From the sequence record PZ452581.1: DNA of 64,000 bases; one strand, written 5' to 3'. The translations under genes and the position numbers were made by a program. This document shows, piece by piece, positions 2,606 to 55,660 of this stretch. The DNA is from a phage. Under the pieces are notes generated by a model. That model saw only the letters and a list, made by a program, of their open reading frames with translations, had not been told where the DNA came from and ran no database searches. Within the stretch, counting starts at the first letter, position 1; every line of letters begins with the position of its first letter.

Positions 2606-3066
2606 TAGTAAAGGTCCTCAGAGTAAAGTTCTTTTTCACTACCACCACGTTCAATACGTACTTGTCCAGCGTAAGTTGCAATAATCATTGCTTCTTCGCG
2701 AGTCCAATAATTACTATATTGGTCAATAAATCCTTGGTCATCATCACAAACTTGTTGAGTAACTAATTGAGGTTTAACTACATCTAAAACTTCTGCCATA
2801 TCTTTAGAATAATGACGAGCACCTGGAATAATAAGAGTTCGTCCATCTTTTAATTTAAAACGATTAGCTGCGCAAACAATTCGTCGTTGATACTTTTGGT
2901 TTTCATCCCAATACGCAGTCTGCCAACAGATTTCAGGAACTTCATCTAAAACATTTTGTTCTGTATATTCACCACCGTAAGAAGCTAATTTAGCAGCCAG
3001 ACTTTCCGGAGTCTCACGAGATAAAGCTTTATCTAACAGAGCTAAACGTTCTTTAAAAGTTTTCAT
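2605..3066 (-). CDS. Hypothetical protein (arn.3-like)
   Basis: 153-aa ORF; stop/start overlap with flanking ORFs. Confidence 0.5.
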
Positions 3067-16783: not shown

Positions 16784-17287
16784 TTAATTTAAAGTAATAA
16801 AGCCTTTTAATTCGGCATGTGATTTGCGGAACATTACTTGGTGCCCGCCAATGATAACTTGATCATCTGGAACTTCGTATACAGCGAGATAAAATCCTTT
16901 AGAAGATAATTCTTCACGCTCTTCTCGTGTGAACCATCTCATCATATCATATTCGCTAGCGAAAGCAAAATGATAAAGAGCTATAAACCATCCTGGAATA
17001 TAGTGATCTACGCCTACATATTCTTCTTTCTCAAAATTAGTATTAATTGCTATATTAGCATTTTTAACTAATAATTTGTCTTCGTGTGGAAGAGGAATTC
17101 TTTTATTATCATTACTATGATGCATAAAATTAGGTCTGTCATAACCTACGTGTAATAACCACTCTTCGCTCCATGAATCTATTATACTCCTGTATGGCGT
17201 TATTTGAACACAAAGATCTCGACGTATTGTTATAGCATCTTCATAATTAAGAATACTAAACGATGATTCAACACGATAAATTTTCAT
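16784..17287 (-). CDS. Hypothetical protein
   Basis: Track ORF 16784-17326 trimmed to internal Met MKIYRVESSF downstream of a promoter-like element. Confidence 0.45.
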   Translation of the reverse strand: MKIYRVESSFSILNYEDAITIRRDLCVQITPYRSIIDSWSEEWLLHVGYDRPNFMHHSNDNKRIPLPHEDKLLVKNANIAINTNFEKEEYVGVDHYIPGWFIALYHFAFASEYDMMRWFTREEREELSSKGFYLAVYEVPDDQVIIGGHQVMFRKSHAELKGFITLN

Positions 17288-17350
17288 TTTATTATCCTCA
17301 GTAGCTATGGTGTTATAGTACCACAACTAACCGAGGAAGTAAACAACTTT

Positions 17351-18034
17351 TTATCGTTTTGTTGGAAGAGATAGAGGATCGCAATCTTCCTCTGATGGAG
17401 CATCTTCAAGACCCATAGCATATCGCAAAGCGTACTTCATCATCAGGATGTCTTTCGCACAGTCATGAATAGAATCATGTGCAACGAATCCATCTAAAGT
17501 TCCCTTTGGAAGAGGACATGTGGTCATATCACGAACAAGCAGAAGTGCTTCAATTCTGGTACGAATATCACGCTGATTCCAGAATTTACATGGTTCTAAC
17601 TTAAATGTGTCAAGCTCATTCTCAGATACACCATTAAGGCGTTGAATATCACGAATGAGATCGACTAAAATTGGAAAATCAAACGACATTCCACGGCACC
17701 AGCCTTGAGATTTCCAAGGATCGATATTATGTGCATTGATGTAATCATTAAATTTCGCAATACCGTCGATAGTGCTTACATCTTCATCGGACGGTGCAAT
17801 ATTTTTTCGAGCTTCAGGAGATTGATTCTTCCACCATTCGATAGTACTTTTAGTAAAAAGACGATGTCCTTTTTGGCTTTTTAAATCAAATTTGATTTTA
17901 ATGCCACGTGAAACTAATTCATCGAATGTTTCAACCACTTCTGGATTAGGGTCAAAAGCAATTACAGCTAAATCAATAACCGCTGCTTTTTCACCACTTC
18001 CCATTGTTTCAAAATCTATAATAAAATCAAACAT
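17351..18034 (-). CDS. dexA: Exonuclease A DexA (DEDDh 3'-5' exonuclease)
   Basis: 227 aa, MFDFIIDFETMGSGEKAAVIDLAVIAF... exonuclease motifs; length equals T4 DexA. Confidence 0.88.
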   Translation of the reverse strand: MFDFIIDFETMGSGEKAAVIDLAVIAFDPNPEVVETFDELVSRGIKIKFDLKSQKGHRLFTKSTIEWWKNQSPEARKNIAPSDEDVSTIDGIAKFNDYINAHNIDPWKSQGWCRGMSFDFPILVDLIRDIQRLNGVSENELDTFKLEPCKFWNQRDIRTRIEALLLVRDMTTCPLPKGTLDGFVAHDSIHDCAKDILMMKYALRYAMGLEDAPSEEDCDPLSLPTKR

Positions 18035-18291
18035 TAAATTTTCCTTGCTAAATCGCGAATTTGACCTACAGTATAGTCTTGAATATAAACTTTATTAATA
18101 GGCTCATCAATAAATTTTGCCATAGATTCAATATCTTTTTGTATCTCTTTAAGACTGTATACTATCTTTGAAGCTTTTTCGCGAATAGTAATATTTTCAG
18201 GACCTGGATTTTCTTCAATGACAGCTTTAACATTTGTCATAAGAGATTTAAACTGGTACCAACTCAACTCAATCATTAATAATCGCCTCAT
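18034..18291 (-). CDS. Hypothetical small protein
   Basis: 85-aa ORF; similar to the next ORF. Confidence 0.5.
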   Translation of the reverse strand: MRRLLMIELSWYQFKSLMTNVKAVIEENPGPENITIREKASKIVYSLKEIQKDIESMAKFIDEPINKVYIQDYTVGQIRDLARKI

Positions 18292-18529
18292 AAAGATAGC
18301 TAATTTCGCCTAAAACGTAATCATTGATTGTAACAGTTTTCACTTCACCACAAAAGAATTCTAACGCAATTAAATCTCGTTCAATTTCTTCTAATTGAAG
18401 CATCAACTTACTAGATTCAATTTTTACAGTTTCACGATTTTTACCATGAGCAATTTCATAAATTTCGCTAACTTTATCCTGAAGAAGATAAAACTGATCT
18501 TTAGTTATTTCCACGAATAGCTTCCTCAA
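18269..18529 (-). CDS. Hypothetical small protein
   Basis: 86-aa ORF, paralogue-like to 18034-18291. Confidence 0.5.
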   Translation of the reverse strand: MRKLFVEITKDQFYLLQDKVSEIYEIAHGKNRETVKIESSKLMLQLEEIERDLIALEFFCGEVKTVTINDYVLGEISYLYEAIIND

Positions 18530-18761
18530 ATTTAATTAGTAATTTACAGACACTTTCATCTAGTGTAATTACCGTATCTGTATTACTGTGATATGATTGT
18601 TTTTCAATTCGTTTAATTGCTAATATAGTATCACTTATAAGATAAAGCTTATGAAGGAGCTCAGCTCCTGTTATCATAACATTAAGATTATCTTGCTTAT
18701 TAGTATGCTTCCTTATACCATCTATTAGACGATTTAAATATTTTGAATTGATGTTAATCAT
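18501..18761 (-). CDS. Hypothetical small protein
   Basis: 86-aa ORF. Confidence 0.5.
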   Translation of the reverse strand: MININSKYLNRLIDGIRKHTNKQDNLNVMITGAELLHKLYLISDTILAIKRIEKQSYHSNTDTVITLDESVCKLLIKFEEAIRGNN

Positions 18762-18767
18762 ATATCC

Positions 18768-20087
18768 TCACACATAAAATACGTCATAACGACCACGGGT
18801 AACACCAACATAAAGAAGTTGTTGAGCCAATTCAGCATCTGCATAATGAATACAAGGCGTATAAATGAAAGCACGGTCTACAGACATACCCTGAGCTTTA
18901 TGGAATGTTGATGCAGGAAGTGCTTTCACTTTACTAAACTGTGATTTAGCATCCCAAAAATCACTCCACGGAGCTTTTCCGCCTTTGTTCCAATTTTTAT
19001 AAGTTTCTGCCGTTTTACCTAAAAATAGGTTAAACTTATATAGCTCTTCATCAGATGAAATTATTTTAATCTTTTCACGATAATATTCATCATCGCCGTA
19101 AGTTTCTACTGTTAAATCCCAATGACGAATTAAGTATTCTCCAGGAACACCACGAGCTTTAACAAACGTCGATGTATACTCTGCTTCTATAATACGAACT
19201 AATTGTCCATTATTAAAAATAATTTCTGACACAGGCTTTCCATCAATTTTATATGTTTTAATTAATGGTTCCTGCATTACAATAATTTCACCGACAATAA
19301 AATCTTTATCAGTTTCAAAAATCTTTTTACGAATAATGCTATTTAACTTGTCAACAGATTTATTCGTAAATGCCATTACGCGATTTTCAAACAAATCATC
19401 TAATGATTTTACGATTGAAAAATAATTTACCATAAAATCGCGTAAAGCGGTATCACCAGTAAATCCACGTACTCCATGCCCGTCAACAACTTTATCATAA
19501 ATCCACTTACCGTTACGAACATCAGTAGCTACATCAATAATAGGAGCATTACTGCGTTTAACTTCAGTAAGTTCACACTGATAAAAATCTTTGTGTGTAA
19601 AGAATGGACTGATATAAGCAGTATTTTCTCCTGGGTCAACAGGTCTAATTTGCTTATTATCACCTATTCCAATTATAGTACACCAAGGTGGAATAGTTGA
19701 AAGCAAAATTTTAAATAGCTTTCTATCATACATTGACACTTCGTCGCAGATTAATACCTTGCATTTAGCTAAATCTGGTACTTCCTTCTGTTCAAAAAGA
19801 ACGTTTTCTTCATACGTAACTGGGTTAATTTTAAGAATACTGTGAATAGTACTCGCTTCTTTCCCCGACAGTTTTGAAAGAATCTTTTTAGCTGCATGAG
19901 TAGGAGCTGCTAAAATAATACCAGTTTCACCCGTAGATATTAAAGCTTCAATGATGAACTTAGTAAGAGTAGTCTTACCAGTACCAGCAGGTCCATTAAT
20001 AGTTACATGATGTTTCTTTTCTTTAATAGCCCTCATAACGATGTTAAAGGCATTTTTCTGGCCTTCTGTCAAATCATCAAATGTCAT
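18768..20087 (-). CDS. dda: DNA helicase Dda (SF1B)
   Basis: 439 aa, MTFDDLTEGQKNAFNIVM...INGPAGTGKTTLTKFII Walker A; matches T4 Dda. Confidence 0.95.
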   Translation of the reverse strand: MTFDDLTEGQKNAFNIVMRAIKEKKHHVTINGPAGTGKTTLTKFIIEALISTGETGIILAAPTHAAKKILSKLSGKEASTIHSILKINPVTYEENVLFEQKEVPDLAKCKVLICDEVSMYDRKLFKILLSTIPPWCTIIGIGDNKQIRPVDPGENTAYISPFFTHKDFYQCELTEVKRSNAPIIDVATDVRNGKWIYDKVVDGHGVRGFTGDTALRDFMVNYFSIVKSLDDLFENRVMAFTNKSVDKLNSIIRKKIFETDKDFIVGEIIVMQEPLIKTYKIDGKPVSEIIFNNGQLVRIIEAEYTSTFVKARGVPGEYLIRHWDLTVETYGDDEYYREKIKIISSDEELYKFNLFLGKTAETYKNWNKGGKAPWSDFWDAKSQFSKVKALPASTFHKAQGMSVDRAFIYTPCIHYADAELAQQLLYVGVTRGRYDVFYV

Positions 20088-24654: not shown

Positions 24655-24692
24655 GAAAAAAGGAACCCCGAAGGATTCCTTAAATTTTAACC
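24655..24692 (-). terminator. Hairpin terminator downstream of soc
   Basis: Minus-strand AAGGAAUCC-UUCG-GGGUUCCUU hairpin followed by a T-run. Confidence 0.6.
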
Positions 24693-24944
24693 ACCAATAC
24701 CTGGAGTTGGCGTAACAGTCCAAAGACCTTCATTAGCAGTGATCCATTCAGTACGCTGATTTTCTTCATATACTGTAGAATATGCTGCTTTTTCAGAAGG
24801 GAATGTCTGATAATGAGCACCAGAAATTTTGTGAACATCAGAATAAAGAGGGAAAGCTACAGAAATTTCTTTACCCTGAATTGTACCACCATCAACTGCT
24901 TGGTCAAATGTTTTGATATTAACATAACCGCGAGTACTAGCCAT
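24687..24944 (-). CDS. soc: Small outer capsid protein Soc
   Basis: 85 aa, MASTRGYVNIKTF...EISVAFPLYSDVHKISGAHYQTFPSEKAAYSTVYEENQRTEW matches T4 Soc. Confidence 0.9.
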   Translation of the reverse strand: MASTRGYVNIKTFDQAVDGGTIQGKEISVAFPLYSDVHKISGAHYQTFPSEKAAYSTVYEENQRTEWITANEGLWTVTPTPGIGG

Positions 24945-24960: not shown

Positions 24961-25170
24961 TTAAATTACATGATTATTTATAATAAATTCTCGCGGAACG
25001 TTAAAATATCCGATTTTAGTTAATATAACAACATCACCATTAATAATTACCGGAGAATAATCTTCTGAAGCATTAAATTTCCAATGGGCTCTAATATTAT
25101 ATCCATCAGAACCAAATGCTCGACTAGCCGGTCTCCCGGCTTTTTGCCATGCATAAAAATCAAATTTCAT
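24961..25170 (-). CDS. Hypothetical protein
   Basis: 69-aa ORF between soc and 56, where T4 carries segF. Confidence 0.45.
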   Translation of the reverse strand: MKFDFYAWQKAGRPASRAFGSDGYNIRAHWKFNASEDYSPVIINGDVVILTKIGYFNVPREFIINNHVI

Positions 25171-25370
25171 TTTGAATGCTCTATAATTAATTTTAAGGCT
25201 TCTTCACGCACCAACTTGTCTAATGGTATATGCCCAGTTTTAATTGTGTAAGCTTTGTGGAGCTGATTAGATAAGAGCTCGTATGTGAGCTCTTTGTCAT
25301 AATCTTTAAATAGCTGGTCAATACGTTTCTTGCGGGCTTTCTTAAGCTGGCGTTTATTTAAACGAGCCAT
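25167..25370 (-). CDS. Hypothetical basic protein
   Basis: 67-aa lysine/arginine-rich ORF. Confidence 0.45.
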   Translation of the reverse strand: MARLNKRQLKKARKKRIDQLFKDYDKELTYELLSNQLHKAYTIKTGHIPLDKLVREEALKLIIEHSK

Positions 25371-25888
25371 TAATAGCCTCTGTCTTGACGAGCGAAGTTT
25401 TCAGCATTTTTCAGATAATAAAGTTTAAATATTTCTTCAGCTGACATTCCAAGAGCAATAAATTTATTCATGAAAAAGTGAAATTGGTCAATCAGTTCAA
25501 ATTTAATTTCAAGCTGATCTTCAGGAGATAAGTCTTGAATTTTCTTGGATTGCATTTCAGAATAACGTTTCTTCCAAGGTTTCCATACAGCAGAAGCTTC
25601 TTTTTCACCATTACTCATACCACCAAGAGAAGTATATAGCTCGCGAGTTTCGTCTGCGATATAATCGTCTTGGTTTCGCAGCCAAGCAAGAACTTCTCCT
25701 GCAGTTTCAAGTGAATCAGGATGACGATTTGTTTCTGGTTTATCATTAGCCAAACGAATCTGTAAATGCCGCTGCATGTCAAGCATAACCTGCAATGGGT
25801 CAATACTGTGCATAATATACTCAGCATATGCACGATTTGCTTTATCAACACCTTCGATCAAATGAGCACATTCATTAAAGTGAGCCAT
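25370..25888 (-). CDS. 56: dCTP pyrophosphatase (dCTPase) gp56
   Basis: Track ORF 25370-25981 trimmed to internal Met MAHFNECAHLIEGVDKANRAYAEYIMH matching T4 gp56 N-terminus; MazG-like. Confidence 0.88.
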   Translation of the reverse strand: MAHFNECAHLIEGVDKANRAYAEYIMHSIDPLQVMLDMQRHLQIRLANDKPETNRHPDSLETAGEVLAWLRNQDDYIADETRELYTSLGGMSNGEKEASAVWKPWKKRYSEMQSKKIQDLSPEDQLEIKFELIDQFHFFMNKFIALGMSAEEIFKLYYLKNAENFARQDRGY

Positions 25889-25959
25889 TATTTTTCCTTT
25901 CAATTCATGGGTTAGTAGATTAATTATACAATAAATATATAAAGCAATAAGGAGGACAT

Positions 25960-26160
25960 ATGGTACAAAAATTAATGGCACTTGTTAATGCCATAAAAGG
26001 TAATAAAAAACGTATAGCTTTTACTATTTCTGCTATGGTAGGAATTTTACTCTGGAACTTTATTTTATCACCAATTGCAATTGCGCATGGTGTTAATATT
26101 CCAGTAGTTACTCTTGATACATTCGTAGATCTAGCATTTGCTTTAGTTGGGTTAATTTAA
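25960..26160 (+). CDS. Small membrane protein on the plus strand
   Basis: 66-aa hydrophobic ORF with AAGGAGG SD 6 nt upstream; occupies the gap between 56 and 61. Confidence 0.45.
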   Translation: MVQKLMALVNAIKGNKKRIAFTISAMVGILLWNFILSPIAIAHGVNIPVVTLDTFVDLAFALVGLI

Positions 26161-27185
26161 ATCTTAGCATATTTAGATAGCCGCATTTTAGCCATCAACC
26201 CCTGGGCAATATTATTTTTCATATATTCCATAATTTGTTCAGGGGTTGCACCTTCCTTTCTAATCATATCATTGACATCTTTTGATTTCCAGGGAGATTT
26301 ATCCCAAAACATAACCCTTTCTCCTGCATCAACTAATTTAGTCATTCGCTTAATAGTGTCAGGATGACGAGGTTCATTATCTAAAACCCACACACGTCTA
26401 TCTTTAAATGGAACAACTTCTAGGTCTAATTGACCACCCGTAATAGCTATACCATTTTCAATAAAAAGTGAATCTATAGGTCCTTCTAGAACATATACAT
26501 CACCATCTTTAACTCGTTCGACTCCATAGATTTTTGTTGCTTCAGGATAAGCTTTGATGGTGATATATTTTTGGGGAGCATCTTTCTTTAATGCACGTCC
26601 TTGAAAAGACTCAGCTTTTCCATTAGCATTATAAATTGGAATAACAAGACGAGGCTCAGGTATTTCCTTTTTATATGTTCCCGGTGCTATGCTATTAACT
26701 AATTTAGGCCATTCAGTTGTAAACCAAAGATATTTCCATTTATCCTTTGGAATACAACGAGCTTTTACATATTTTATAATTGCATGGTCTTCCGCCAGTT
26801 TATCTAATCGAACACATGACGGAAGAGATTTAATTATTTTCTTCTCAGGTTGTTTAGGAAGTTCTTTAGGTTTTTCTACTGGACGACTTTTACCTTTTTC
26901 TTTTCTTATTTCAAAGATATACTCACGATATAAATCAGGTTCAAACTCCTTTAAATATATTCCGATTGGTGCATGATAGTTACAGTTATAACAATGAATA
27001 TTTCCTTCATTATTATCACCATAATACCATCCACGAGCTTTATTCTGGTCGGTTTTTGAATCTCCACAAACAGGACATCTAAACCGTAATTTAAAAGTTG
27101 AACTATTATTTACTTGTGTGAATTTAGGTAAATGAGCTAATGCACGGTATGCAAACTCATTATCAATCCAAGGTATTGATGACAT
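26157..27185 (-). CDS. 61: DNA primase gp61
   Basis: 342 aa; zinc ribbon CPVCGDS...CYNC and TOPRIM region; matches T4 gp61. Confidence 0.95.
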   Translation of the reverse strand: MSSIPWIDNEFAYRALAHLPKFTQVNNSSTFKLRFRCPVCGDSKTDQNKARGWYYGDNNEGNIHCYNCNYHAPIGIYLKEFEPDLYREYIFEIRKEKGKSRPVEKPKELPKQPEKKIIKSLPSCVRLDKLAEDHAIIKYVKARCIPKDKWKYLWFTTEWPKLVNSIAPGTYKKEIPEPRLVIPIYNANGKAESFQGRALKKDAPQKYITIKAYPEATKIYGVERVKDGDVYVLEGPIDSLFIENGIAITGGQLDLEVVPFKDRRVWVLDNEPRHPDTIKRMTKLVDAGERVMFWDKSPWKSKDVNDMIRKEGATPEQIMEYMKNNIAQGLMAKMRLSKYAKI

Positions 27186-27353
27186 TTTTACTCTTCTTTT
27201 TCTTTAGATTCCTCTTTTTTCTTTTTAGGAATCTGTTCAGGGCCTTTATTTACTACAGCGCCTGACGTTGTTCCAGTAGAGATATTTTCAGGATTACCAC
27301 CTGAATCTCCAGCGACCATATCTTCTTTGATAAATTCTTTATATGTTTTCATA

Positions 27354-27710
27354 TTAACCTCTATTCATAAAAGCATTAAAAATTTGGTCATCAATAGATG
27401 GAATAGCAACCTTTTCGGCATCATTTAGCAAATCATTAATTTCATCAGATAGCATAACACATGTGCCTTTATTTCCTGTAATTGTTACTGCACAATTACG
27501 AACGTTTTCTTTATCAAAATTTAGGTTAATATTTTCGTAGTGAAAATCCTTTAATGCCGAATATATCTTTAAAATGAAATTGTCTTTTACTACAATAAAC
27601 CCAACTTCACTATTAAAACGTGGTTCATGGAAACTATAATAAACCTTTTCATCTATAAAATCGTATGAAATTTTTTCCATTTTTAAATATGAAAATTCAG
27701 AACTATACAT
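27354..27710 (-). CDS. Hypothetical protein (61.1-like)
   Basis: 118 aa; C-terminus SIDDQIFNAFMNRG shared with next ORF. Confidence 0.5.
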   Translation of the reverse strand: MYSSEFSYLKMEKISYDFIDEKVYYSFHEPRFNSEVGFIVVKDNFILKIYSALKDFHYENINLNFDKENVRNCAVTITGNKGTCVMLSDEINDLLNDAEKVAIPSIDDQIFNAFMNRG

Positions 27711-27711
27711 A

Positions 27712-28338
27712 TTAACCTTTATTCATAAAAGCATTAAAAATTTGGTCATCAATAGAAACATTTACTTTAGACTGTTTTTCTGATGGTAATTCATATCCAC
27801 ATATTACAATTTTGTAATCAATATCAAAATACACAGAAGCAATATGATTAATGATGTTTTCAGTAAAGTCTAAATCAACGTCAATATCTTTTTGACCACA
27901 GCCCAAAGGATAAATAATGCGAGTAATTCGATTATCTTTAACAAATATTCCACCGACATACTCTGTGCTGCGTTTAAAGTCTACACGCCGACGAAATGAA
28001 AAATATTCAGGCTCTCTATGAGCTCGGCTCATAGGACACAACGAGTAACTAGAATAAGAGATGTCAAATCCTACGCCTTCGATATGAGCCATAGTGTCAT
28101 GATTAAACCAATTATAATCGTACGCCAAATCCATTAGATTATAATATGTAAAAGACACCGGATTAACATCATTAGTCACAAGCATGTAATTAGCAACTGC
28201 TATAATTTCATTGTTTTTAACGAATACAAACCGTGATTGATGCGAATGACCTGGACCCGCGTTTTCACGATTAATGATATAACACTGGGCACTTTTATAT
28301 TTGTATGTATCTTTGCACTTGTGCATTTGATAGAGCAT
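27712..28338 (-). CDS. Hypothetical protein at T4 gene 61.2 position (possibly the TifA anti-ToxIN factor)
   Basis: 208 aa at the 61.2 position upstream of sp and dmd. My recollection that T4 61.2 is 208 aa and is TifA is uncertain. Confidence 0.5.
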   Translation of the reverse strand: MLYQMHKCKDTYKYKSAQCYIINRENAGPGHSHQSRFVFVKNNEIIAVANYMLVTNDVNPVSFTYYNLMDLAYDYNWFNHDTMAHIEGVGFDISYSSYSLCPMSRAHREPEYFSFRRRVDFKRSTEYVGGIFVKDNRITRIIYPLGCGQKDIDVDLDFTENIINHIASVYFDIDYKIVICGYELPSEKQSKVNVSIDDQIFNAFMNKG

Positions 28339-54737: not shown

Positions 54738-55660
54738 TTCAGTACCTCAATAGCATTACGTAAACCATTTGCTTTGGCGGTTAAAGCCTTAAGAACTTTA
54801 GTATGCTCTTCAATCTGTTTTTCAACTTCAATCAAACGGGCACTGAGATATTCGCGTTCTTCTTTCATAGTATCATTCCCATGATTGGGCTTTGGCGTAG
54901 GTTTAAATTTATTAGGGTCCTTTAACTTAATAACAACTTTAGTTTCAAACAGTGAAAGACCATAATTCGTATTATCATCAAAGGATTCAACTACGTCCAT
55001 TTTAGACAATAACGTACGAAGATTATAAGTCAAAGAACGAATCGTTTTATTATGTTTATTAGCTTCACATGGTTTCATATATGGAAGATTTTTATATATT
55101 TCATGCGGAGCACAAACAATAATTGACAATTCAAATGGTCCATTCTGTGATGATGGAATGAATTTAGCCGTAACCCAATCTTTTACATTTACATTAATAG
55201 TACGATCATCGCCATGACAAAACAGTCTACGAGAATGCTTAAAAAGCATATTCACATTATTATTGAATTCGTGTGAAAATTCACTAGCAAATTTTTCTTT
55301 ACTATCTTTAGAAAACCATTCTTCTAAATAAGTTCTTTTCACGTCGTTAATAATATTAAATGTAACAACACTAGCATTTGATACATTAGTCTCAATGTAG
55401 CTTGGATACATAAATTTTTTAACATTATTAACAGCTATCACAGAAGATAGTAATCGGGAACGTTTGAACCACTCGAGCAAAGAACCAAGAGAATGTGAAT
55501 ACGCATTTTGTGTATCTTTACAAATATGGTTTTCCCATCCAATATAGTCTAAAAAATCACGAAGAATATTATTGATTACTGCTTTGTGTCCTATCTGATA
55601 ATTACGATGTTTAGTAATAAGACTATCAAAATAATCAATATAATGTTTACGAGTTTTCAT
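54734..55660 (-). CDS. Paralogue family member A (coiled-coil C-terminus)
   Basis: 308 aa; shares FK.SRLLS and LFK..R.L..GDD motifs with the next three ORFs. Confidence 0.6.
   Translation of the reverse strand: MKTRKHYIDYFDSLITKHRNYQIGHKAVINNILRDFLDYIGWENHICKDTQNAYSHSLGSLLEWFKRSRLLSSVIAVNNVKKFMYPSYIETNVSNASVVTFNIINDVKRTYLEEWFSKDSKEKFASEFSHEFNNNVNMLFKHSRRLFCHGDDRTINVNVKDWVTAKFIPSSQNGPFELSIIVCAPHEIYKNLPYMKPCEANKHNKTIRSLTYNLRTLLSKMDVVESFDDNTNYGLSLFETKVVIKLKDPNKFKPTPKPNHGNDTMKEEREYLSARLIEVEKQIEEHTKVLKALTAKANGLRNAIEVLK

Follow-up and report, generated by a model that had tools for sequence, protein, structure and literature searches.

A conserved plus-strand micro-gene, absent from the curated T4 and T2 reference annotations, at the compact gene 56-gene 61 junction of a T4-like phage

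In phage T4, the genes from soc to the primase gene 61 are arranged in the order soc-segF-56-(oriA)-dam-61; the T4 record bears out the map that the original prediction had given for this region. [quoted passage not shown] It has also been described that T4 early and middle transcripts are of one polarity and that late transcripts can be of either, and A occupies position -13 in 9 of the 50 late promoters listed for T4 (PMC2988020). In T2, the locus reads soc-T2_028-T2_029-56-dam-T2_032-61. A third, dam-less arrangement is seen in RB18, RB32 and SA20RB, in which soc is followed by two small ORFs, gene 56, a short ORF on the opposite strand (hereafter the micro-gene) and gene 61.

The DNA analyzed here (the window, i.e., the whole 64-kb stretch of sequence record PZ452581.1) is a Tequatrovirus (T4-like) segment, and its junction has the same gene order and spacing as that of RB18, RB32 and SA20RB (Table 1). 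Across positions 25300-27300, at least 80% of which is covered by 459 phage records, the best match is RB18, with 99.1% identity over these 2 kb. RB18 is collinear with the window and 95-96% identical to it across its length. Over stretches of 25 kb, no record exceeds ~96% identity, which indicates that the window represents another member of the genus and a mosaic different from RB18. Genes 56 and 61 had been predicted to lie about 270 bp apart, with the gap holding a 66-aa ORF on the opposite strand behind a strong Shine-Dalgarno sequence; both statements are accurate, the measured gap being 268 bp. Read from left to right, the locus would consist of gene 56 leaving to the left and the micro-gene leaving to the right from a shared block of putative middle and late promoters, with the micro-gene then converging on gene 61. 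An Rfam scan of positions 25300-26700 gave only sub-threshold chance matches to eukaryotic snoRNA and miRNA models.

Table 1. Features of the soc-61 region, in positions of the 64-kb window
Feature	Position	Strand	Remarks
soc (small outer capsid protein)	24687-24944	-	87% identity to T4 Soc (tblastn)
69-aa ORF at the place of T4 segF, T2_028 orthologue	24961-25170	-	PHROG 5773, E=1.9e-41
67-aa ORF, soc.2-like, T2_029 orthologue	25167-25370	-	PHROG 5782, E=2.1e-37
gene 56 (dCTPase/dUTPase), T2-type allele	25370-25888	-	172 aa; PHROG 173, E=2.7e-44
gene 56 start codon	25888-25886	-	read from the sequence
56-61 interval	25889-26156		268 bp; read from the sequence
putative MotA-type middle promoter of gene 56	25923-25948	-	sequence match only
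-10 element TATAAT	25928-25923	-	part of the putative gene 56 middle promoter
late-promoter-like motif AATAAATA	25930-25937	+	TATAAATA with A at -13; ends 22 nt before the micro-gene ATG
MotA box ATTGCTTTA	25948-25940	-	followed by a 13-nt spacer
Shine-Dalgarno sequence AAGGAGGA	25949-25956	+	3 nt before the micro-gene ATG; kept in orthologues
66-aa micro-gene	25960-26160	+	ATG start; PHROG 2024, E=1.5e-31
terminator-like hairpin ATGGCATTAACAAGTGCCAT (25994-25975), then TAATTTTTGT	25965-25994	-	pattern scan
gene 61 stop codon	26157-26159	-	read from the sequence
TTAA, overlap of the convergent micro-gene (TAA) and gene 61 stops	26157-26160	.	sequence
gene 61 (DNA primase)	26157-27185	-	98.8% identity to T4 gp61

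The plus-strand ORF, which had been regarded as an oddity in an otherwise minus-strand region, is annotated in relatives as RB69ORF029w and RB32ORF030w, and further as VR7ORF033w and S16 gp16.1, all belonging to PHROG 2024. The window protein matches the profile of this family over its full length (residues 2-66 against positions 1-65 of 65). It shares with these four named members the length class, the position, the ribosome-binding site and the motif, and nothing substantive differs. A tblastn search with the micro-protein retrieved 868 phage records, ~503 of them at 90% identity or more and ~365 below 60%, and several deposited phages encode a protein 100% identical to that of the window. 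In the loci of the below-60% class that were examined (VR7, JK45, pEC-M719, Mineola and Kosakonia phage 305), the gene adjoins primase. At least six other Tevenvirinae genera have orthologues of 57-69 aa and 27-55% identity between genes 56 and 61, again on the strand opposite to these two genes. We found the gene so placed in Gaprivervirus VR7, Jiaodavirus Mineola, Kanagawavirus Kosakonia phage 305 and Gelderlandvirus S16, in the unclassified phage pEC-M719, and in JK45, whose taxonomy line reads Tequatrovirus but whose protein is only ~55% identical; orthologues on the opposite strand are also present in metagenomic T4-like contigs. The matches in Dhakavirus and in Enterobacter phage Entb_45 are either unannotated or labeled hypothetical, and Gapriverviruses carry a second, tandem copy of the gene, itself unannotated.

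Conservation at the protein level is concentrated in a core motif, W-N-[FY]-x3-P ... G-x2-[LIV]-P ... [DE], which is present both in the window protein and in distant members. In an alignment of 7 sequences, W32, N33, P38, G44, P48 and G64 are invariant. When 23 sequences are aligned, the invariant set is K4, W32, N33, P38 and G64, with G44 and P48 at 90% conservation or more. Searched exhaustively with the family profile, 1.8 billion representative proteins yielded only 19 clusters, nearly all of 45-99 aa, with one weak match of 363 aa; the retrieved sequences carry the core W-N-[FY]xxxP...GxxLP...[DE].

The same gene is present in the two reference phages. In T4, an intact ORF of 66 aa occupies positions 17738-17938, flanked by dam (16846-17625) and gene 61 (17935-18963); it differs from the window micro-protein at 2 residues (97% identity) and ends in the same TTAA stop overlap. 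In T2, the ORF is likewise intact and located between dam and gene 61. It is unannotated in three T4 records (AF158101.6, NC_000866.4 and MT984581.1) and in the T2 record LC348380.1, and it is absent from the features of the 1984 T4 entry X01416; an automatically annotated genome of a T4 mutant, by contrast, has it called as PHROG 2024. Thus, a conserved micro-gene that is annotated in relatives is absent from the curated T4 and T2 reference annotations. The junction itself is ordinary and already catalogued, and the micro-gene is listed as a hypothetical protein in hundreds of genomes.

On the soc side of gene 56, the window resembles T2. As the original prediction had counted, soc and gene 56 are separated by exactly two small ORFs, encoding 69 and 67 aa. 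The first is nearly identical to T2_028, and the RB18 counterpart of the second is annotated "similar to T6; soc.2". The gp56 of the window is 98.3% identical to that of T2 versus 69.8% to that of T4. No match to T4 SegF was obtained by tblastn in the 64-kb window, and no GIY-YIG ORF is found between soc and gene 56. The soc-56 spacer and the gene 56 allele are of the T2 type, the known segF-less state. With presence of dam and segF scored in this order, T4 is +/+, T2 is +/-, VR7 is -/+ and the window is -/-. All four combinations exist, so that the two cassettes are independent of each other, and the absence of either is a known and common polymorphism.

For dam, tblastn with the T4, RB43, SmallBear and T4_ev240 proteins gave no credible match in the 64-kb window. 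A Dam-like match at 55047-55187 (E=0.022) was discarded as chance: it runs antisense within a 308-aa minus-strand ORF and is repeated in RB18 nrdC.3. The complete RB18 genome contains no homologue of the four phage Dam types and no SegF. Since the window comprises 64 kb and ~100 kb of the phage genome lie outside it, it is by analogy with RB18 that we consider this phage to encode, probably, no Dam at all. The suggestion that the phage may lack both Dam and SegF therefore holds at the locus and throughout the 64-kb window, and for Dam it extends to the whole genome by this analogy only.

The absence of dam does not make the junction unusual. Among 522 matching phage records, ~335 contain the whole compact junction and the rest match from the ribosome-binding site onward, like T4; moreover, the same layout is found in Gaprivervirus, Jiaodavirus, Kanagawavirus, Gelderlandvirus and further Tevenvirinae. 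About 182 records carry a Dam of the T4 type (at least 90% identity to T4 Dam), a number that agrees with the compact count. Taken with the synteny of the orthologues across genera and with the presence of the ORF in T4 and T2, this makes the compact junction the majority state, at about two-thirds of Tequatrovirus records. We consider it highly likely that the junction of the window is simply the ordinary, majority arrangement of the Tevenvirinae rather than a remodeled T4 locus.

Comparison with the dam-bearing phages locates the difference precisely. The T4 locus is collinear with the window, with soc, gene 56, its middle promoter, the micro-ORF and gene 61 all present. It differs in having segF (675 bp) where the window has the two small ORFs, in its divergent allele of gene 56, and in an extra ~880 bp between the gene 56 promoter and the micro-ORF, consisting of dam (780 bp) and remodeled flanks. 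Homology between T4 and the window covers the 5' end of gene 56 as well as its promoter, is then interrupted by dam with its own flanks, and resumes at the ribosome-binding site of the micro-gene; in a blastn search with the 291-bp interval, T4 matches from this site onward with 96% identity. T2 has the same two small ORFs as the window and an intact micro-ORF but differs by dam and an additional 181-aa ORF, both inserted between gene 56 and the micro-ORF. In metagenomic relatives, the same spacer holds a 115-aa ORF, or a 54-aa and a 109-aa ORF. Other genera carry dam at unrelated loci, in one case near denB/ndd and in another next to nrdC, and in a few Tequatroviruses another, different Dam-like gene is found between nrdA and nrdB. 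In T4 and T2, dam is optional cargo at an insertion hotspot between the gene 56 promoter and the micro-gene.

The compact layout of gene 56, micro-gene and gene 61 is probably the ancestral state, and insertion into a dam-less junction is the direction of the dam indel that we infer. The opposite history, in which the ancestor of this lineage was a Tequatrovirus with dam and the gene was later deleted or removed by recombination with a relative lacking it, is in our judgment possible but rather unlikely. It would suit the mosaic nature of Tequatrovirus genomes, evident here in the ~96% ceiling over 25 kb, and the occurrence of the dam and segF states in every combination. However, dam is missing from this site in every genus examined other than Tequatrovirus, where other genera do have dam it is elsewhere, and the dam-less junction, with its tightly interleaved promoters, bears no obvious scar.

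The micro-gene lies on the strand opposite to all neighboring early and middle genes, and a late-promoter-like motif precedes it. The core NATAAATA is found 12-33 nt upstream of the orthologous ATG in 22 of 22 other loci examined, and it is kept although the flanking sequence is otherwise unalignable. S16, which was read separately from this set, has ATTAAATA in its place. The motif is GATAAATA in T4 and T2 and CATAAATA in VR7, and the full TATAAATA is present upstream of the micro-gene only in Kosakonia phage 305. In the 64-kb window, ATAAATA occurs 8 times on both strands, and the canonical TATAAATA a single time, at 24975-24982 (minus strand), just upstream of the late gene soc; from these frequencies, placement by chance can be estimated at ~1e-3 per locus. 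The late-promoter motif and a strand unused early both point to late expression, and on this reading of the sequence the micro-gene is most likely transcribed from a variant gp55 late promoter. Transcription would be expected to start at ~25943, giving a leader of ~17 nt with a strong ribosome-binding site, and the late transcript would then continue antisense into the 3' end of gene 61.

The late-promoter motif falls between the MotA box and the -10 element of gene 56, on the other strand, so that the putative middle and late promoters are interleaved back-to-back. The middle promoter was recognized as (a/t)(a/t)TGCTT(t/c)A placed ~12-13 nt upstream of a sigma-70 -10, which is the configuration found here, and the homologous element is a middle promoter in the SA20RB annotation and in T4 X01416. 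It would be the counterpart of P(M)16.53, a promoter associated in T4 with oriA priming. A review has placed oriA outside regions of transcriptional divergence (PMC3016281); if the arrangement proposed here is true, oriA would be a site of temporally separated divergent transcription. A further minus-strand element, the terminator-like hairpin, lies within the micro-gene, at codons 6-12. In SA20RB this element carries a terminator annotation, and in the window it is probably the terminator of gene 61 transcripts. We considered whether this terminator could be a conserved dual-use element, and rejected the idea for the family at large: it is absent in JK45 and not in the same place in VR7.

Given the convergent orientation, the main product of the locus might be a late antisense RNA running into the 3' end of gene 61 and contributing to primase shut-off late in infection, with the ORF serving to load ribosomes or to protect the RNA. 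A 4-nt overlap of the micro-gene stop with that of the convergent downstream gene occurs in many lineages (besides the window and T4, in JK45, Kosakonia phage 305, S16 and two metagenomic phages), and the 1.1 kb downstream of the micro-gene yielded no plus-strand terminator; both points favor such a role. Yet antisense read-through is not universal, since the ORF is separated from gene 61 by a hairpin in Mineola and by a spacer of ~120 bp in pEC-M719; in VR7, the unannotated tandem paralogue fills a gap of ~200 bp. In one metagenomic locus, moreover, the convergent downstream gene is not gene 61, and conservation at the protein level demands a protein function. An RNA as the main product thus seems improbable to us, although antisense transcription is compatible with the explanation we prefer, a late gene acting through its protein, and does not exclude it.

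Length alone would not establish the ORF as a gene. The ORF list contains several plus-strand ORFs of 55-95 aa that run antisense to nearby genes and are spurious, and 66 aa is not beyond chance. The micro-gene is judged real on other grounds, namely its ribosome-binding site, the late-promoter motif ahead of it and its conservation across genera, and it is very probably a genuine gene. Its pairwise dN/dS values are 0.1-0.5, with dS saturated between genera. Within Tequatrovirus, where only 8 distinct sequences contribute to the signal, variable sites are distributed over the three codon positions as 9/2/11, with the second position depleted, and the frame of the ORF has the most synonymous changes among all six frames. 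The micro-gene is under purifying selection.

It could still be argued that the ORF is untranslated and that its conservation reflects overlapping minus-strand cis-elements, such as the terminator or 3' UTR of gene 61 and the promoters of gene 56 and dam. The terminator-like hairpin and the gene 56 middle promoter do overlap the ORF and its upstream region, spurious ORFs of similar length are common in DNA as AT-rich as this, and searches for transcript, ribosome-profiling or proteomic evidence of the micro-gene found none. Literature searches on the ORF names, on T4 ribosome profiling and on unannotated T4 genes returned nothing relevant; for T4, 150 phage start sites, of which 22 are antisense, have been reported from dRNA-seq (bioRxiv 10.1101/2024.04.04.588121). 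Nevertheless, we regard this explanation as very improbable: a protein motif is kept at 27-55% identity despite saturated synonymous sites, and the frame, the length (57-69 aa) and the strong ribosome-binding site are maintained across genera without a conserved terminator. The tandem paralogue of Gapriverviruses and the coherent family of small proteins returned by the profile search likewise speak for a translated gene.

The protein encoded by this gene is predicted to be a single-pass inner-membrane protein in N-in/C-out orientation. An AlphaFold model built on the 23-sequence alignment has helices at residues 2-12, 16-42 and 52-63 and is of moderate confidence (mean pLDDT 75.7, pTM 0.43). 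The first 18 residues include five K/R and no acidic residue, whereas the last 24 include two Asp and no K/R, so that five K/R precede the transmembrane helix and none follow it. In this model, a basic N-terminal amphipathic helix would be cytoplasmic, one transmembrane helix would carry the W-N-[FY]...P motif, and ~24 residues outside the membrane would hold the conserved G-x-x-L/I-P...[DE] motif and a short, amphipathic and hydrophobic helix. The invariant Asn-Trp pair and the Pro inside the transmembrane helix suggest helix-helix association.

Scans of Pfam, NCBIfam and PADLOC with the micro-protein and the 23 family members gave no match. Foldseek returned only the family itself from BFVD and nothing from PDB, and no structural or family match pointing to a function emerged from the searches run. 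A late-acting role in the envelope or membrane is our best guess, held with low confidence. The orthologue of phage OE5505 is labeled "Holin", a name that we consider automatic and unsupported. Like holins and antiholins, the micro-protein is small, has one hydrophobic transmembrane helix and is probably late. In contrast to holins, it has a hydrophobic, acidic C terminus instead of a basic, hydrophilic one, its 23 family members match no holin family of Pfam or NCBIfam, and its gene is flanked by those for a dCTPase and a primase, not by lysis genes; in RB18, the annotated holin is t, at a different locus. For want of a family match and of a basic C terminus, and given its place outside the lysis cassette, we refuse the holin label.

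The proposal that dam was lost in this phage and replaced by a newly acquired plus-strand micro-gene, as a lineage-specific remodeling, accords with the shorter gap (268 bp here versus 1149 bp in T4) and the missing dam, but it is refuted by T4 and T2, which carry dam beside an ORF of identical length. It is also opposed by the many genera without dam whose orthologues are found at this position, and by homology between the window and T4 that resumes at the ribosome-binding site of the ORF. We lean toward a genuine late gene of T4 and T2 that their reference annotations have missed, encoding a membrane micro-protein conserved across Tevenvirinae with a specific late role in the envelope and driven by a promoter placed back-to-back with the oriA-linked MotA promoter.

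For this particular phage, the junction has little significance: its layout is the one most often found in Tequatrovirus, and both dam and segF are already known as optional cassettes. More generally, the T4 map misleads as a template for its relatives, because accessory cargo is inserted at a hotspot that separates the gene 56 promoter from the micro-gene. T4 transcriptomic, ribosome-profiling and proteomic data that are mapped to the reference annotation will miss the micro-gene, which offers an easy knockout target in the best-studied phage. The residual interest of the locus lies in this gene, a conserved, probably late membrane micro-gene situated back-to-back with an oriA-linked promoter.

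Gene 56 and the 66-aa micro-gene are separated by a spacer that is an insertion hotspot; its minus-strand cargo differs between phages (coordinates in the table). In T4 the cargo is dam, whereas T2 carries dam and a 181-aa ORF; one metagenomic phage has a 115-aa ORF there and another has ORFs of 54 and 109 aa. On the other side of the micro-gene, an additional 124-aa ORF separates it from the primase gene in the metagenomic contig L017. A few Tequatroviruses (T4_ev240, ECO07P2 and CF-SP2) encode a distinct Dam-like methyltransferase (33% identity with T4 Dam) in the nrdA-nrdB interval, where T4 carries mobE. Finding no dam between 56 and 61 is therefore not enough to show that a phage is Dam-less.

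The micro-gene is also present in T4 and T2, between dam and 61. This conserved ORF is not annotated in the curated T4 records AF158101.6, NC_000866.4 and MT984581.1, nor in the T2 record LC348380.1; the automatic annotation of a T4 mutant (OZ209023.1) does call it, as PHROG 2024. A second, tandem copy of the micro-gene was observed in Gapriverviruses (VR7, and also the comparison loci L026, L027 and L030). In VR7 this paralogue begins directly after the micro-gene orthologue ORF033w, is not annotated and looks frameshifted at its C-terminus, and in VR25 and VR26 its stop codon overlaps that of gene 61 by the same 4 nt.

Other small features were observed. Between 61.1 and 61.2, the window has an additional 118-aa ORF (PHROG 4122), a partial paralogue of gp61.2 that matches its C-terminal half (E=7.5e-07). 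This ORF is the same as RB32ORF033c in RB18 and has no counterpart in T4. A second late-promoter-like motif, GATAAATA, lies antisense within gene 61.2, with no obvious ORF downstream of it. Only five ATAAATA motifs, including this one, occur on the window's plus strand. RB18 has an annotated 28-aa plus-strand ORF ('similar to ADJ39790 from T4T') between 55.6 and nrdH, in an early region otherwise on the minus strand.

Coordinates of the features discussed
Feature	Source	Position	Strand	Remark
Gene 56	window	25370-25888	-	
118-aa ORF	window	27354-27710	-	
Late-promoter-like motif	window	27909-27916	+	
66-aa ORF	T4, AF158101.6	17738-17938 (= L001 3514-3714)	+	
66-aa ORF	T2, L033	2612-2812	+	
Tandem paralogue	VR7, L004	about 2700-2900	+	MGTLFYQIWKL...WNLLVVPIAATQGVHLPQVT...
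Spacer cargo	L017	3454-3937	-	
Spacer cargo	L019	3622-3969	-	
Spacer cargo	T2, L033	1183-2521	-	
Dam-like methyltransferase	T4_ev240, L012	1992-2783		also in ECO07P2, CF-SP2
28-aa ORF	RB18, L013	39604-39690	+	
Split gene 56	Kosakonia phage 305, L008	979-2442		

The gp56 of the window is 98.3% identical to that of T2 and only 69.8% identical to that of T4, although the neighboring proteins are 95-100% identical to T4, with the exception of Soc (87%). T4 gp56 is closer to its counterpart in VR7, which bears segF (76%). This pattern of divergence resembles the trace that SegF-driven co-conversion and marker exclusion of gene 56 would leave. In Kosakonia phage 305, a homing-endonuclease gene splits the gene 56 annotation into two pyrophosphohydrolase CDSs; this is an endonuclease invasion distinct from SegF, with the same target gene.
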